From the NCBI RefSeq assembly GCF_000981785.2, contig NZ_CP011304.1, forward strand, positions 2,370,001-2,402,000: a stretch of DNA of 32,000 bases, given 5' to 3'. The notes below the pieces were generated by a model that was not told where the DNA came from, searched no databases, and saw only the letters and a list, made by a program, of their open reading frames with translations. This stretch comes from Microcystis aeruginosa NIES-2549. Its GTDB lineage: Bacteria; Cyanobacteriota; Cyanobacteriia; Cyanobacteriales; Microcystaceae. The translations under genes were made by a program, and so were the position numbers. Of the stretch, positions 948-17,058 are shown piece by piece (positions within the stretch are counted from its first letter, which is position 1; each line of letters opens with the position of its first letter).

Positions 948-1505
948 ATGACGATCAAATTTCGGTTTCATCCAGAGAAAGCAGTTGAAGCCGCTGCTAT
1001 ACTCTTAAAGCTGCACGGCAAACCGATGAAGTATTTAGGGTTGCTGAAAATGCTCTATATAGCTGACCGTCTTGCTTTAAAAACCATGGATCAACCAATT
1101 ACTGGGGATAGATATGTATCAATGGATTATGGACCGGTTCTCAGGGGTGTTTATGATTTGATTAAAGGACAGCCCGTGGACTCTGCTTTACCCCTGTGGT
1201 CGAAATATATTTCTCCCCGGGATTCTAATTATGTTGACCTGCTGCAATATCCCGGCAATGAAGAACTCTGTGAAGAAGAAGAAATGATTCTTAAACAGGT
1301 TTACAAGACTTTTGGCCATCTCAATCCCTTTCTTGTAGCCGAATGGACTCACGATTTACCAGAATGGAAGGATCCCCATGGTTCGGCTATTCCAATTTTA
1401 GTGGAGGATGTTTTGCGATCTATGGGTAAAACGGAGGAGGAAATCGAAGATATTAGCCAAGAAGCCCAGCGAGAAGCCTATTTAGATGGAGCTTTACATG
1501 GCTAG
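948..1505 (+). CDS. Panacea / DUF4065 (SocA/GepA-like) antitoxin-type protein
   Basis: 185-aa ORF. The core LGLLKMLYIADRLALKTMDQPITGDRYVSMDYGPVLRGVYDLIKG matches my memory of the DUF4065 pattern (LxKLLYxAD...G.PI.GD.Y.A...GPV...VYD). It has an acidic C-terminal tail, and its stop overlaps the next ORF. Confidence 0.7.
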   Translation: MTIKFRFHPEKAVEAAAILLKLHGKPMKYLGLLKMLYIADRLALKTMDQPITGDRYVSMDYGPVLRGVYDLIKGQPVDSALPLWSKYISPRDSNYVDLLQYPGNEELCEEEEMILKQVYKTFGHLNPFLVAEWTHDLPEWKDPHGSAIPILVEDVLRSMGKTEEEIEDISQEAQREAYLDGALHG

Positions 1506-1887
1506 TCTGGTAGTCAAGCTGGGGGATGCCTTTTTAATCGATACACCCCCTAATAAGCAACATCTCTATATTGCGATCGCAAAGACTTCTGAAAATAGAT
1601 ATTTATTTGTCAATGTTACAACTCGAAGAAGCAGTTCGGAAGCTACTTGTGTGCTTTTGCCCGGCCTTGGTGTCCCGAATTTTATCGTCTGTGAATCCGT
1701 GATTGCCTATCAATTTGCCCGGGAGATGGATGCCACGGAATTAGCCAGTTTAATCACTGCGGGTAGTCCGATTCCAAAAGGCTCCTGTTCAGCCACAATT
1801 CTCGCACAGATTCAGCAAGGTGGTCTAGTTTCTCGACGACTGAAAAACAAGTACAAAATTGCTCTTAGAGCTTTCTTAGATACATAG
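1498..1887 (+). CDS. hypothetical protein; candidate toxin partner of the Panacea-domain gene
   Basis: ATG at 1498 overlaps the upstream stop (ATGGCTAG, 8-nt overlap). GGAG at 1488-1491 lies 6 nt upstream. An alternative ATG at 1486 would give the 133-aa form. I do not recognise a family. Confidence 0.6.
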   Translation: MASLVVKLGDAFLIDTPPNKQHLYIAIAKTSENRYLFVNVTTRRSSSEATCVLLPGLGVPNFIVCESVIAYQFAREMDATELASLITAGSPIPKGSCSATILAQIQQGGLVSRRLKNKYKIALRAFLDT

Positions 1888-1922: not shown

Positions 1923-3773
1923 CTAACTCCCCGCAGGACAGGAATCGGCGAAAATTACGCAGGGAATCCCCACATGACTAACGGGAACAATATAGGGTTC
2001 TGTGGGGGGAAATAAAGCGACAACGTGGGGAACGGGACGGGGAGTATAATGCACTTGCGACTGGCCCCGATAAGCGAGGGAGGTGCTTGCTCCTGAATCC
2101 AACATCACCGCCTCCCGAAAGCCTGCCTGTACTAATAATTCTCCCAAAGCCATGGAATCGATCGGCTCTCGGGAAACCCCGATTACTGGCTGTCCTGCCT
2201 GATTAATCCCCCAAAAAGCCCGGTGACGCAGGGCATCAAAACCGTAAAGTGTACCAAAGGATTCTCGGGATTGTGGTTGTCCATCTTTGACTAACCAAGC
2301 GGCCGCGACAAAAGCATCCGTCACCTTGAGATCATCTCCAGCCTCCGCTGCGATTCCTTCTAGGGTATTATGACGGGCAGGATCAAAAGGAAGATAACGC
2401 ACCCATTGATCAGTAATGATTACTAAAGGACGACCCTCTAACTTGCCGATTTCCCCTTCATATCCCGGGATAAAGCCGCCATTTTCGCTTAAAACCGGCC
2501 CGATCATCTGATTTGAGTCCAATTCCTTGAGAGAGAAAAAACCGCCATCTACAGCCGCGATCGCTTCTGTGCCAGCGATAATTTCCTCCACTTGATAACG
2601 ACTATCAGCGTGAATAGTTTTGGGAATCCCGCCACTAATCAGAACAAGTGTATTAGTTGGGAATTCCACTTCCCGTTTTTGGATGGTGGTGGCAAAGTTA
2701 AAACCGCCATCGGTACGGGGTAAGGGATCACCTCCCCAAGCTTGCGGGACAACTTCCCTAGTGCGCGATTGCCCAAAGCGTCCAATCGTGAGTAAATCGG
2801 GGGATTGGCCAGCAAAATGCTCATCGAGGTCATTCATCGATAAAGCCGCCCGATAACCCGCTTTTTTGACGAATTCCTTCACTCGATCGTCCGCCTTCCC
2901 TTCCGGATAGGTAAAATAATTAATCGGAATACCCAATTCTTTTTCTAAGATTTGTTTCGATTGCTTGACTTCTTGCTCCAAATCTGCATCGGACAATAAC
3001 CTTAAATCCCGGGGATGACTAACACTATGGGAGACAATCTGTACTAGAGGATCGGCGGCCATTTCCTGGAGTTGTTGCCAAGTGACACTGGTTCGGCCGG
3101 TTTTTTGAGTCATTTTATTGATATAAATCGAGAAAACGGCGGGATAGTTATATTTTCTCAATAAAGGATAGACATACTGGTAATGTCCCCCATAACCATC
3201 ATCAAAAGTCAATAAAACCGGTTTAGCGGGAAGGGGGATACCTGTCCGCAGATGGGAAATTAACCAATCGATACTGATCGGAGTTGCCCCGATTTCCTGC
3301 AAAAATTGAAAATGTGCCTCTAATTCGCCTGGGGTAACGTCAAAAAATACCTCTTTTTCTGGTAAAATGTCGTGATACATTAAAATCGGTACTTTAGTTC
3401 CTTGAGCGCGGGGATGAATTTCCGGCCAGGGGGCTAATTCGATCGCTGTTGTCGAGTTATTTAGCCAATTATCGAGACTAATATCGTTTTTTTGGAGAGA
3501 TAGGGAAAAAATCACTCGATCTGATAAGTTTTTATAGGTTTTACAATCAAAAATTCTCGATATATCCTTAAAAGAACTATTTTCTCGGACATAATCCGCG
3601 CATTCCGGTTGAAACTCCCTAAAAGGTGCGGGGAGAGAATCACCCCCCACCAGAGCATTAGAACGAGGATAGAGAGAAATTGCCCAAATAATCAGACAAA
3701 CGACGATAAATGCCAAAAATCCGTATAGGGGAAGGAAAGAAAAGGAAGATTTTTGCCGAGCTTGCCAACGCAT
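1923..3773 (-). CDS. membrane-anchored polysaccharide deacetylase (NodB domain) fused to a phosphodiester glycosidase-like (DUF2233/NAGPA-like) domain
   Basis: 616-aa ORF. N-terminal hydrophobic segment FLPLYGFLAFIVVCLIIWAISL; NodB-type LLTFDDGYGGHY and HSVSHP; C-terminal AVDGGFF ... MLDSGASTSL reminiscent of DUF2233. Confidence 0.7.
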   Translation of the reverse strand: MRWQARQKSSFSFLPLYGFLAFIVVCLIIWAISLYPRSNALVGGDSLPAPFREFQPECADYVRENSSFKDISRIFDCKTYKNLSDRVIFSLSLQKNDISLDNWLNNSTTAIELAPWPEIHPRAQGTKVPILMYHDILPEKEVFFDVTPGELEAHFQFLQEIGATPISIDWLISHLRTGIPLPAKPVLLTFDDGYGGHYQYVYPLLRKYNYPAVFSIYINKMTQKTGRTSVTWQQLQEMAADPLVQIVSHSVSHPRDLRLLSDADLEQEVKQSKQILEKELGIPINYFTYPEGKADDRVKEFVKKAGYRAALSMNDLDEHFAGQSPDLLTIGRFGQSRTREVVPQAWGGDPLPRTDGGFNFATTIQKREVEFPTNTLVLISGGIPKTIHADSRYQVEEIIAGTEAIAAVDGGFFSLKELDSNQMIGPVLSENGGFIPGYEGEIGKLEGRPLVIITDQWVRYLPFDPARHNTLEGIAAEAGDDLKVTDAFVAAAWLVKDGQPQSRESFGTLYGFDALRHRAFWGINQAGQPVIGVSREPIDSMALGELLVQAGFREAVMLDSGASTSLAYRGQSQVHYTPRPVPHVVALFPPTEPYIVPVSHVGIPCVIFADSCPAGS

Positions 3774-4202: not shown

Positions 4203-5387
<1,185 letters not shown>

Positions 5388-5409
5388 TTTATTAGTAAAT
5401 GATAAGTCG

Positions 5410-5488: not shown

Positions 5489-5989
5489 TTATGGTCGTCC
5501 GCAATTGGGGAAATTAGGGCAACGTTCCCGCATTAACTGGGAAAATTCCGTTCTTTGAGCGGGAGTTAAGACTTGGCGAATTTCCAAAAAACTTTCAAAT
5601 TGCAGGTTACTCATTTCTTGGCGATTGCGAGAGATTTGCTGATGTTTAGCACGGATATCTCGATCGGAAGCATTATTCGATAATAAACTATTTAATTCTT
5701 GTTCGTTGTTTCTAATGGTTTCTCGCAACTTTTTGGTTTTTTCCTGATATTTCTGACGAATAGCGGCAATTTTCGACTTTTGGTCATCGCTAAGGTTTAA
5801 TTGTTCGATTAGTCTTTCTCGAGAATTATTCATCCCACGGGGACGACTCTCAGGACGCTGGGGAGAGCCAGTTTGAGCAGTGAATAGACGATCCTGGGGA
5901 TAGGATAGCACAGTGGCAGTTGGGACTAGGTTAGCCGCCAGAGTTAAAGCCATGGTCGTGCCGAGAATCGAGAGAGTAGAAAGGGACAT
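5489..5989 (-). CDS. periplasmic Spy/CpxP-like LTXXQ-motif protein
   Basis: 166-aa ORF with a signal-like N-terminus, a charged helical body and LTXXQ-like motifs (LSDDQ, LTPAQ). It is the last gene of the ECF sigma operon. Confidence 0.55.
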   Translation of the reverse strand: MSLSTLSILGTTMALTLAANLVPTATVLSYPQDRLFTAQTGSPQRPESRPRGMNNSRERLIEQLNLSDDQKSKIAAIRQKYQEKTKKLRETIRNNEQELNSLLSNNASDRDIRAKHQQISRNRQEMSNLQFESFLEIRQVLTPAQRTEFSQLMRERCPNFPNCGRP

Positions 5990-6009
5990 AATTGACCTCG
6001 ACCAAGAAA

Positions 6010-6384
6010 TTAAGGATTATAGGTAGAATAGGTGAGTTGAGGCTCGTTTAAGCTCATCCAAGGCGAACTATAAACGCTAGGAGCAGCCATCGGTGGAGCG
6101 ATGCTATGGTTCCAACTCTCCACTAAAAAAGCTTCTAACTCCTCATCGGAAATTTGGCCTAGTTGTGGATGAGGATGAGACCAACGATAGGAAGCAAAAA
6201 TCAGCGCCGATAAGGCAGTAATACCAGTTATCCACCCCAATAAAGGCAGCAATTTTGGGCAAGTTACCGGCCTTTCTCCCTTAATCATTTGCATTAACTG
6301 TTCTTCTTGATCTATCGGTCGAGGTGGCAGCGATGGACGATAGCGACGCAGAAAATTAACTACTTTCTCATCTTCCGGGGACAT
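6010..6384 (-). CDS. putative membrane-spanning anti-sigma factor
   Basis: 124-aa ORF. Its start overlaps the sigma-factor stop (TAATG on the minus strand). It has a single central TM segment, LLPLLGWITGITALSALIFASY. The call is positional. Confidence 0.5.
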   Translation of the reverse strand: MSPEDEKVVNFLRRYRPSLPPRPIDQEEQLMQMIKGERPVTCPKLLPLLGWITGITALSALIFASYRWSHPHPQLGQISDEELEAFLVESWNHSIAPPMAAPSVYSSPWMSLNEPQLTYSTYNP

Positions 6385-6977
6385 TAGAGAACTCCTTGTT
6401 TTTGCAAAAATTGACCCATGGTTTTACGCGCATAATGAAGACGTGATTTCACCGTACCGAGGGGAATTTCTAAGATTTGGGCGATTTCCTTTTGGGGTAA
6501 GTCCTCTAGATCGTGAAGGACAAGGACAGCGCGATGTTCTAAACTGAGAATTTCTAACCCTTGCTGGACCACCTCCTCATAATGCAATTGCATCAAATCA
6601 GGACTATCTTGGGGACGGGATTCACTATCAAGGGGGTTTTCCTCATCAGTGCTTTTGGCCATCCTCATTTGTCTTTTGGCTAATTGTCGCCGACCATCGA
6701 TCGCCACATTGCAAGTAATCCGATAAACCCAAGTGGAAAAGTATTCAGGTGAACGCAATTTCGGCAACCCGTGCCACACTCTTAAAAATACCTCTTGGAC
6801 AAAATCCTCTAGGAATTCCCTTCCACAGAGTTGATAGAGAGTAGAGCGGATTTTTGGTTGATAAAGACGGTAAAGGTGACGAAAAGCACCCCTATCACCC
6901 CTTTGACATTTCAAGATTAACTCTCGATCGCTCACACTTGTTTGCTTCTCGGTTATCACCTCGATCATTCCCCTCAC
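6384..6977 (-). CDS. ECF-type RNA polymerase sigma factor (sigma-70 family)
   Basis: 197-aa ORF. Region 2 (FVQEVFLRVWHGL ... STWVYRITCNVAID) and region 4 HTH (LPQKEIAQILEIPLGTVKSRLHYARK). Confidence 0.9.
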   Translation of the reverse strand: MRGMIEVITEKQTSVSDRELILKCQRGDRGAFRHLYRLYQPKIRSTLYQLCGREFLEDFVQEVFLRVWHGLPKLRSPEYFSTWVYRITCNVAIDGRRQLAKRQMRMAKSTDEENPLDSESRPQDSPDLMQLHYEEVVQQGLEILSLEHRAVLVLHDLEDLPQKEIAQILEIPLGTVKSRLHYARKTMGQFLQKQGVL

Positions 6978-16641: not shown

Positions 16642-17058
16642 CTAACGCGATAGCGTTTCCTTAGACGGAGTAGCTTGATTCTCAACATATTTTTTTAGTT
16701 GTTCAACAGTTACTCCACCACAAGTAGCGACAAAATAAGAACCAGTCCAAAAATGAGGTTTTCCATAAAAATATTTCTTGGCTAAATCAGGATATTCTTT
16801 TCTAATTAATCGACTACTAACGGTTTTTAAGTTAGCGCTCAAAACCGATAGGTTTTTGTCAGGTTTATACTCGATCAATAAATGAACATGATCTGATTCT
16901 CCATTAAACTCCAAAAGTTGACAATCCCATTTAAGGAGATTTTCAGCAAAAATATCTTTTAATCTTGTCAAAATTTCTGCACTTATAGCTTTTCTGCGAT
17001 ATTTCACCACAAAGACTATAGACAGACCTAAATCCATGATGATAAATACTTGACACAT
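16642..17058 (-). CDS. tnpA: IS200/IS605 family Y1 (HUH) transposase TnpA
   Basis: 138-aa ORF. KYRRK segment, HUH motif (SDHVHLLIEY), C-terminal Tyr region (QLKKYVENQ). The start could instead be the internal MDL codon. Confidence 0.85.
   Translation of the reverse strand: MCQVFIIMDLGLSIVFVVKYRRKAISAEILTRLKDIFAENLLKWDCQLLEFNGESDHVHLLIEYKPDKNLSVLSANLKTVSSRLIRKEYPDLAKKYFYGKPHFWTGSYFVATCGGVTVEQLKKYVENQATPSKETLSR

Follow-up and report, generated by a model that had tools for sequence, protein, structure and literature searches.

A probable PanAT toxin-antitoxin cassette with a predicted MazF/PemK-fold toxin in the chromosome of Microcystis aeruginosa NIES-2549

We have analyzed a stretch of 32,000 nucleotides of the Microcystis aeruginosa NIES-2549 chromosome (contig NZ_CP011304.1, positions 2,370,001 to 2,402,000; hereafter the window, numbered from its first letter), with a focus on two overlapping genes that we refer to as panA (948-1505, + strand) and panT (1498-1887, + strand). 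The pair is probably a chromosomal type II toxin-antitoxin cassette of the PanAT kind, in which a PanT with a MazF/PemK fold, most likely RNase-like, would be silenced by bound acidic PanA. This view draws on the domain identity of PanA, the modelled fold of its partner, the strict synteny and the co-variation of the two proteins, a decay that falls on the toxin gene, and the presence or absence of the whole cassette at one site in Microcystis. A sequence-only reading of the window had proposed a translationally coupled PanAT-like pair with an undescribed, possibly new PanT-type toxin. The coupled, mobile two-gene cassette of an antitoxin-type PanA and a toxin-type partner held up, but the novelty of the toxin did not. 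The partner is assigned to the MazF/PemK fold by AlphaFold and Foldseek, it belongs to a family of 712 cluster representatives, and the pair is already listed, in cluster T6, in the survey of Kurata et al. 2022 (Dataset S1).

The first gene product, PanA (185 aa, pI 4.95, net charge about -11), was compared with domain profiles. It matched the Pfam profile PF13274 (SocA_Panacea) with E=8e-26 and a score of 91.6 bits, the gathering cut-off being 25.7. The Panacea core spans residues 32-141 (1041-1370, + strand) and covers the whole profile (positions 1-113 of 113), which confirmed the DUF4065 core that had been recognized by eye. Among the PHROG families, PanA matched phrog_1281 (E=1e-23), annotated as of unknown function. 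It is a standalone Panacea protein without a recognisable DNA-binding domain. The core is followed by an acidic C-terminal extension, defined by charge and conservation (residues 142-185; 1371-1502, + strand; net charge -8), which carries the conserved motifs SAIP, GK..EEI and REAYLD. By analogy with the acidic C-terminus of MazE and with the Phd-C element of another PanA, we regard this extension as a candidate toxin-neutralising element. The NetFlax study reported direct neutralisation by a standalone Panacea and assigned this role, in other PanA proteins, to added elements such as Phd-C.

A segment of the acidic tail (window 1422-1495; 1470-1488 in L027) was found tandemly duplicated in six loci of our collection (L008, L010, L012, L014, L018 and L027). 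These belong to Microcoleus, Tychonema, Lyngbya and an unclassified cyanobacterial metagenome-assembled genome (MAG). Their PanA proteins have 214-221 aa, and the toxin gene still overlaps panA by 8 nt.

The partner is a basic protein of 129 aa (pI 9.3, net charge +4.6), and the succession of an acidic PanA and a basic partner is the classic charge pattern of an antitoxin and its toxin. The two open reading frames (ORFs) share the octamer ATGGCTAG (1498-1505, + strand), with the panT ATG at 1498 and the TAG stop of panA at 1503-1505. This 8-nt overlap points to translational coupling. A GGAG Shine-Dalgarno of panT, as read from the sequence, lies within panA (1488-1491, + strand), 6 nt before the ATG. 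The ORFs, the overlap, the position of the GGAG and the neighbouring genes were all as the sequence-only reading had described them.

An alternative in-frame ATG at 1486, 12 nt upstream of 1498, would yield a partner of 133 aa and is used by several GenBank records, e.g., AKE64722.1. The ATG at 1498 is favoured as the panT start because the homologs begin at MAS... and the -8 overlap is conserved. The window proteins are identical to the adjacent GenBank entries AKE64721.1 (PanA) and AKE64722.1 (the 133-aa partner form), and the name given by NCBI to the 129-aa form is "MULTISPECIES: hypothetical protein [Microcystis]."

The partner matched no model in Pfam, NCBIfam or PADLOC (Pfam and PADLOC at E<=1), and with no such match the failure to place it by eye was reasonable. 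There was likewise no match to a housekeeping family. Its sole match among the PHROG families was phrog_19071 (E=2e-7), also annotated as of unknown function.

We have modelled the partner with AlphaFold2. With 32 close cyanobacterial homologs as input the pLDDT was 42.7. With a diverse alignment of 117 sequences (A2), which included 116 diverse representatives from an exhaustive profile search, the pLDDT was 93.8 and the pTM 0.87. The modelled chain contains strands at residues 10-15, 21-29, 34-42 and 67-78, and helices at residues 79-85, 99-111 and 117-127. When the model was compared with the Protein Data Bank (PDB) by Foldseek, the top 34 matches were all MazF proteins (E=2e-4 to 2e-2, probability 0.99-1.00, TM-scores 0.46-0.69), among them MazF-mt1, -mt3 and -mt9 of M. 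tuberculosis and the MazFs of S. aureus, E. coli, B. subtilis and D. radiodurans. In BFVD, a set of predicted viral structures, the top matches were named "PemK-like protein." According to this model, the partner is a toxin of the MazF/PemK SH3-like barrel fold with non-canonical conserved polar residues, and from the fold its chemistry would be that of an RNase. The MazF-fold result independently reproduces the HHpred assignment of Kurata et al.

The partner family was also aligned by hhalign with a set consisting of MazF, EndoA, Kid, S. aureus MazF and ChpBK, the E. coli MazF sequence used being confirmed as identical to PDB 3nfc_A. The alignment was end-to-end and in register, and weak (E=0.011, probability 3.75%). 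It pairs G9-D10 of the partner with G10-D11 of E. coli MazF (EcMazF), H22 with H28, L23 with R29 and T41 with T52, a one-residue shift being within alignment error. In EcMazF, R29 and T52 are catalytic residues. The T41 position is occupied by Thr in 81% and by Ser in 9% of the family. The residues conserved family-wide are G9, H22 (98%), L23, V38, N39, T41, D/E48 (97% acidic), C51, S67, Y71, I105, G108 and S112, and H22, T41, D/E48, S67 and Y71 are kept across phyla.

Kurata et al. 2022 (PMC8832971; PNAS 119:e2102212119) examined the neighbourhoods of DUF4065 genes, gave the domain the name Panacea and sorted the predicted partner toxins into 88 clusters. Their Dataset S1 lists, for Microcystis aeruginosa NIES-2549, the PanA WP_046662215.1 and the toxin WP_008200532.1 ("MULTISPECIES: hypothetical protein") in the gene order A-T with a distance of -8, in cluster T6 (PMC8832971). 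Cluster T6 also lists "unicellular cyanobacterium SU3" and spans other cyanobacteria, Treponema, Endomicrobium and many Proteobacteria (PMC8832971). The SU3 entry corresponds to locus L045 of our collection, whose partner is 68% identical to that of the window and shows the same -8 overlap. The T6 pair of Pseudomonas moraviensis (PanA WP_083354365.1, PanT WP_083201923.1), classed by HHpred among RNAses of the EndoA/PemK/MazF family, was scored "TA": its PanT was toxic, was neutralised by its PanA, specifically inhibited 35S-methionine incorporation and co-purified with PanA (PMC8832971). Direct complexes were obtained for five PanAT pairs, including the T6 pair (PMC8832971). By analogy with this T6 relative, we infer that the Microcystis PanT is toxic and inhibits protein synthesis, and that it forms a complex with PanA.

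In the papers searched, we found no treatment of the Microcystis pair beyond the table of Dataset S1. The toxin is already known in the sense that it is a member of a published and partly validated PanAT family, T6, in which a matching Microcystis aeruginosa pair is tabulated. What is added here is a high-confidence fold, the residues conserved throughout the family, the bias of decay towards the toxin gene and the distinction of four allelic states at the Microcystis site.

We have scanned one genome per prokaryotic species and obtained 91 stretches encoding relatives of the partner, the best 80 of which were kept as loci. All loci with a named taxon were cyanobacterial (Microcystis, Nostoc, Microcoleus, Planktothrix, Leptolyngbya, Pseudanabaena, Crocosphaera and others), with partner identities of 52-100% among these best 80 of 91. 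A PanA homolog was present directly upstream and on the same strand in 78 of the 78 assessable loci, the remaining two of the 80 being cut by a contig end. The genes overlapped or abutted in 76 of the 78, the genes of the other two being separated by 103 nt (L034) and, in the decayed L058, by 374 nt. The overlap was -8 in most of the 78 loci, -1 in a Pseudanabaena-type clade, and -2, -4 or -20 in a few; with the -8 overlap recurring in most loci, the arrangement lies far beyond chance. Moreover, the pairwise identities of PanA and of its partner co-varied (r=0.85, Mantel p<=0.001, 64 intact pairs), which is compatible with a complex of the two proteins, although no proof of one.

The partner family is large and, judged by profile similarity, extends beyond cyanobacteria: the exhaustive profile search through 1.84 billion cluster representatives returned 712 partner relatives at E<=1e-3. 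Five distant members, about 20-30% identical to the reference member of the alignment, were looked up, among them a Verrucomicrobiota MAG, an Arenimonas MAG and the metagenome contig L091. In all five, a SocA_Panacea gene lay directly upstream, at gaps of 3-17 nt. Constant adjacency to Panacea genes, which the sequence-only reading had singled out as telling, was therefore found in both the cyanobacterial (78/78) and the distant (5/5) sets. Further searches for partner homologs returned no Pseudomonas entry, and tblastn of the partner against PLSDB plasmids gave no match.

The flanks of the pair vary from locus to locus. Locus L001 (Microcystis sp. T1-4) has a PanA and a partner 100% and 99% identical, respectively, to those of the window, with the same flanks, and the gloB and deacetylase genes flank the pair only in three near-identical Microcystis loci. 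In L004, a further Microcystis genome, an 80%-identical pair stands at a different location, and in Nostoc and Leptolyngbya the neighbours are unrelated housekeeping genes. With 77 other cyanobacterial loci, the window shares DNA homology only over about 946-1880, i.e., over the two ORFs. Since the flanks vary and DNA homology ends with the ORFs, the module appears to be autonomous. Neighbourhood conservation did not extend beyond a two- or three-gene unit, which is the criterion used for PanAT.

A pair was also observed at 4436-5390 of the 51-kb IMG/VR contig UViG_3300037420_002479 (L112), its PanA and PanT being 76% and 70% identical to those of the window. Directly upstream of it is a tail tape-measure gene of 1425 aa (phrog_2335, E=2e-37), and an HNH endonuclease gene is nearby, which suggests (pro)phage carriage of the module.

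The two genes decay unequally. The partner gene was inactivated in 10 of the 80 loci, and panA was intact in nine of those ten; a broken panA beside an intact partner was seen in none of the 80. Overall, panA was intact in 77 of 78 related cyanobacterial loci, the sole disrupted copy belonging to a genome-decaying symbiont in which both genes are broken. The panT lesions comprise a nonsense mutation at codon 43 (Dulcicalothrix desertica PCC 7102), frameshifts (Komarekiella, a Nostoc MAG, a Chroococcales MAG and Ca. Paraprochloron), an internal deletion (Halotia) and truncations (Leptolyngbya PCC 6406 and three MAGs). About 12 independent lesions all fell in the partner, the shorter of the two genes, for which the random per-base expectation is 0.41^12, or about 2e-5. 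Such a toxin-only asymmetry is what an antitoxin/toxin pair predicts.

We have sampled the Microcystis site in metagenome contigs with a 24-mer from the start of gloB, which gave 15 Microcystis contigs covering the exact site. Six of them (L093, L097 and L103-L106) represent an empty site, where gloB adjoins the deacetylase gene with no match to panA or to the partner, and four carry the intact pair. In L094 (6449-6541), panT is interrupted at window 1616-1618 by an 87-bp insertion resembling a miniature inverted-repeat transposable element. The insertion has GCTAAACGGC/GCCGTTTAGC as terminal inverted repeats, the target TTA is duplicated, and panA is kept. One contig has a 74-bp panT deletion (1607-1680) with panA kept. 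In L092, L095 (4471-5349) and L096 (8375-9182), a segment of 810-879 bp replaces the partner ORF exactly, from start to stop codon (1498-1886), and a PanA of 188 aa, 94-99% identical, is retained. A single site thus displays the textbook pattern of a selfish or addictive module, with empty, intact and toxin-dead states and one toxin-replaced variant.

Comparison at the base level delimited the cassette. The empty sites L093 and L103 match the window up to 819 and again from 1922, with 9 unrelated nt in between, so that the inserted cassette corresponds to 820-1921 (1.1 kb) relative to the empty sites of other Microcystis contigs. This bore out both the compact island between gloB and the deacetylase gene and the presence/absence polymorphism that the sequence-only reading had anticipated there.

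The segment that replaces the partner ORF opens with a GC-rich hairpin and has a convergent ORF of 47-78 aa with a transmembrane (TM) segment. At 144 nt downstream of the 188-aa PanA, it encodes an XhlA-like protein of 91-99 aa that combines a coiled coil with a C-terminal TM helix. The match of this protein to PF10779 (E=2.5e-8) scored 34.4 bits, just below the gathering score of 34.7. The replacement could be an in-situ toxin swap or a simple toxin loss. That the XhlA-like protein acts on membranes as a toxin which the same PanA neutralises, through a very recent swap in situ, seems to us a slim prospect; if true, the swap would be a natural experiment on the origin of Panacea "hyperpromiscuity." We give the same slim chance to a separate idea, namely that T6 toxins may use a His/Thr-based active site unlike that of canonical MazF.

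In the mechanism that we propose for the PanAT cassette, the translation of panA and panT would be coupled through the 8-nt overlap, and PanA would bind PanT directly and silence the toxin, its acidic tail (142-185) plausibly being laid over the RNA-binding surface of PanT. Loss of PanA would free PanT and result in translation arrest, most likely via RNA cleavage. The near-invariant His22 and the conserved Thr41 would sit where EcMazF has His28/Arg29 and Thr52. Three points of this scheme, namely the RNase chemistry, the part played by the tail and the trigger, enter purely by inference.

Several observations weigh against this interpretation. In Dataset S1 the status of the Microcystis aeruginosa NIES-2549 pair is "notest," and T6 has members annotated as "terminase" (PMC8832971). 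The link between the window partner and the P. moraviensis PanT rests on the clustering of Kurata et al. A PDB sequence search with the single partner, as well as profile searches with two profiles, gave chance-level matches only, and none of the 117 diverse family members matched PemK_toxin (PF02452) or any toxin-related Pfam model (E<=0.01). The probability of the MazF alignment is low, and Leu23 aligns with R29, so that the partner apparently does not retain the canonical catalytic Arg of MazF. His58, present in 74% of the wider family, is replaced by Gly in the cyanobacterial clade. With the Arg apparently not conserved and His58 missing from this clade, nuclease activity of the panT product is not assured. 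As for the decay, assembly errors could lie behind some of the panT lesions, namely those found in MAGs, while four are in isolate genomes.

The pair may instead be primarily an anti-phage system acting by abortive infection or superinfection exclusion, in which PanA would sense an infection cue and release or activate a MazF-fold effector. In line with this, the NetFlax authors proposed that Panacea may act as a sensor, both PanA and PanT match PHROG families, and Microcystis contigs differ in whether they carry the cassette. Moreover, the pair of the viral contig L112 comes right after the tape-measure gene, and the distant pair on L091 is preceded by a cI-like HTH/Peptidase_S24 repressor gene. 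However, PADLOC-DB 2.0 models matched neither protein (E<=1), tblastn of the partner found no homolog in 50,697 GenBank phage records, and the neighbours in the window and in the other genomes examined are housekeeping rather than defence genes. We consider it unlikely that defence is the primary role. A defence function would be compatible with the PanAT explanation and not really exclusive of it, and an abortive-infection role for this pair is pure speculation.

A second alternative is that the partner has the MazF fold and is no RNase, being either a gyrase poison like CcdB or a non-toxic binding or regulatory protein in a conserved two-gene operon. The apparent absence of the canonical Arg, the lack of a Pfam PemK match and the cyanobacterial clade without His58 would all fit such a protein, as would its unusually high conservation, with a mean pairwise identity of 68% among the cyanobacterial sequences of the partner family. 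There is also a precedent, since one predicted PanT from a phage, in cluster T1, was marked "not Toxic" (PMC8832971). CcdB does appear among the fold matches, but only at Foldseek rank 39 (E=0.048), and the 34 best matches, all MazF, are well ahead of it. Furthermore, in the validated T6 relative it is protein synthesis that is specifically blocked, a harmless partner would hardly account for lesions that fall on the toxin gene and never on panA alone, and H22, T41, D/E48, S67 and Y71 are kept in the way that an active site would be. This alternative therefore appears improbable to us.

The least tenable alternative, a SocAB-like type VI system in which PanA would be a proteolytic adaptor delivering the toxin to ClpXP rather than an inhibitor acting by binding, is highly improbable: SocA is the founding Panacea protein and PanA has a weak, partial match to the NCBIfam model SocA_antitoxin (NF047745, E=7e-5), but this match reaches 22.6 bits against a cut-off of 190 and aligns residues 24-75 only, the partner is of the MazF fold and in T6 whereas SocB was placed in T10, and the direct complexes of Kurata et al. 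include the T6 pair (PMC8832971).

In the window, the cassette is flanked by two genes on the opposite strand: on the left a hydroxyacylglutathione hydrolase gene (gloB, 11-784, - strand; HAGH_C and Lactamase_B in Pfam) and on the right a gene for a polysaccharide deacetylase with an NAGPA domain (1923-3773, - strand; Pfam). A consensus scan alone gave a candidate sigma-70-like promoter, GTGTCA-17 nt-TATAGT (915-943, + strand), which ends 5 nt before the panA ATG. By sequence reading, this ATG has no upstream Shine-Dalgarno. Because of this, and of the proximity of the promoter, a leaderless or near-leaderless panA mRNA is possible. No terminator-like site was seen 3' of the panA-panT pair, and neither Rfam families nor tRNAs were found in the window.

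The cassette is bracketed by a 13-nt inverted repeat, whose arms at 866-878 (GGGACAAAATCTT) and 1910-1922 (AAGTTTTTGTCCC) show 92% complementarity. The right arm stops precisely at the boundary of the empty site. We have rejected this repeat as a terminal repeat because about 0.5 such repeats are expected by chance (an estimate), it is absent from the other loci and its left arm is off the 819/820 boundary. The repeat is probably coincidental.

The annotation of the pair is inconsistent between Microcystis assemblies. The 90%-identity cluster of the partner also has proteins of 64-188 aa that go under the names "Panacea domain-containing" or "SocA family," e.g., WP_232023843.1 (112 aa) and NCR39780.1 (188 aa). 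These mixed names are likely to stem from gene calls that overlap or are fused, or from allelic variants of the locus.

Two further features of the window were recorded. An IS200-like Y1 transposase gene (16642-17058, - strand; PF01797, E=4e-38), about 15 kb from the cassette, was the only mobile-element gene among the scanned ORFs. An apparent three-gene operon (5489-6977, - strand) comprises the genes of an ECF sigma factor (6384-6977), a 124-aa ORF product (6010-6384) and an LTXXQ/Metal_resist periplasmic protein (5489-5989). The 124-aa ORF overlaps the sigma factor gene by 1 nt and its product is a candidate anti-sigma factor.

The genes of Microcystis and of many other cyanobacteria that encode "hypothetical proteins" of the WP_008200532 type can be labelled as MazF-fold PanT of PanAT. 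The natural toxin-null alleles are useful for testing the system in a bloom-forming cyanobacterium. The biological gain is modest, and no new principle is involved.

The closest known system is the PanAT pair of P. moraviensis (T6), with which the window pair shares a standalone Panacea antitoxin without an N-terminal domain, located upstream of a MazF/PemK-like toxin of about 125-130 aa, the ORFs overlapping or abutting. The cyanobacterial clade differs from the wider partner family at partner residues 57-61 (window about 1666-1680), where G-x-G-V-P-x-F-I, with a 2-aa insertion and no His58, replaces the common motif G-(D/E)-H-P-F-I.

Compared with MazEF, PemIK (Kid-Kis) and EndoA, the modelled toxin fold is alike, as the Foldseek probabilities and TM-scores given above indicate. 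Within the limits of the weak alignment, the partner retains the N-terminal G-D motif and a Thr equivalent to T52 of EcMazF. As in MazEF-type systems, an acidic antitoxin precedes a basic toxin, and the acidic C-terminus of PanA recalls the MazE tail. In contrast to MazF/PemK, the partner falls outside PF02452 by sequence, and its catalytic Arg is apparently not retained, with a His at the neighbouring position. Unlike MazE or PemI, the antitoxin is a Panacea protein rather than one of the AbrB/SpoVT or ribbon-helix-helix (RHH) type, and it has no recognisable DNA-binding domain. With the type VI system SocAB of Caulobacter, the window pair shares the Panacea family of the antitoxin. However, PanA remains far under the SocA equivalog threshold, the toxin is unrelated to SocB, and the mechanism of the window pair would probably be direct binding, not adaptor-mediated proteolysis.

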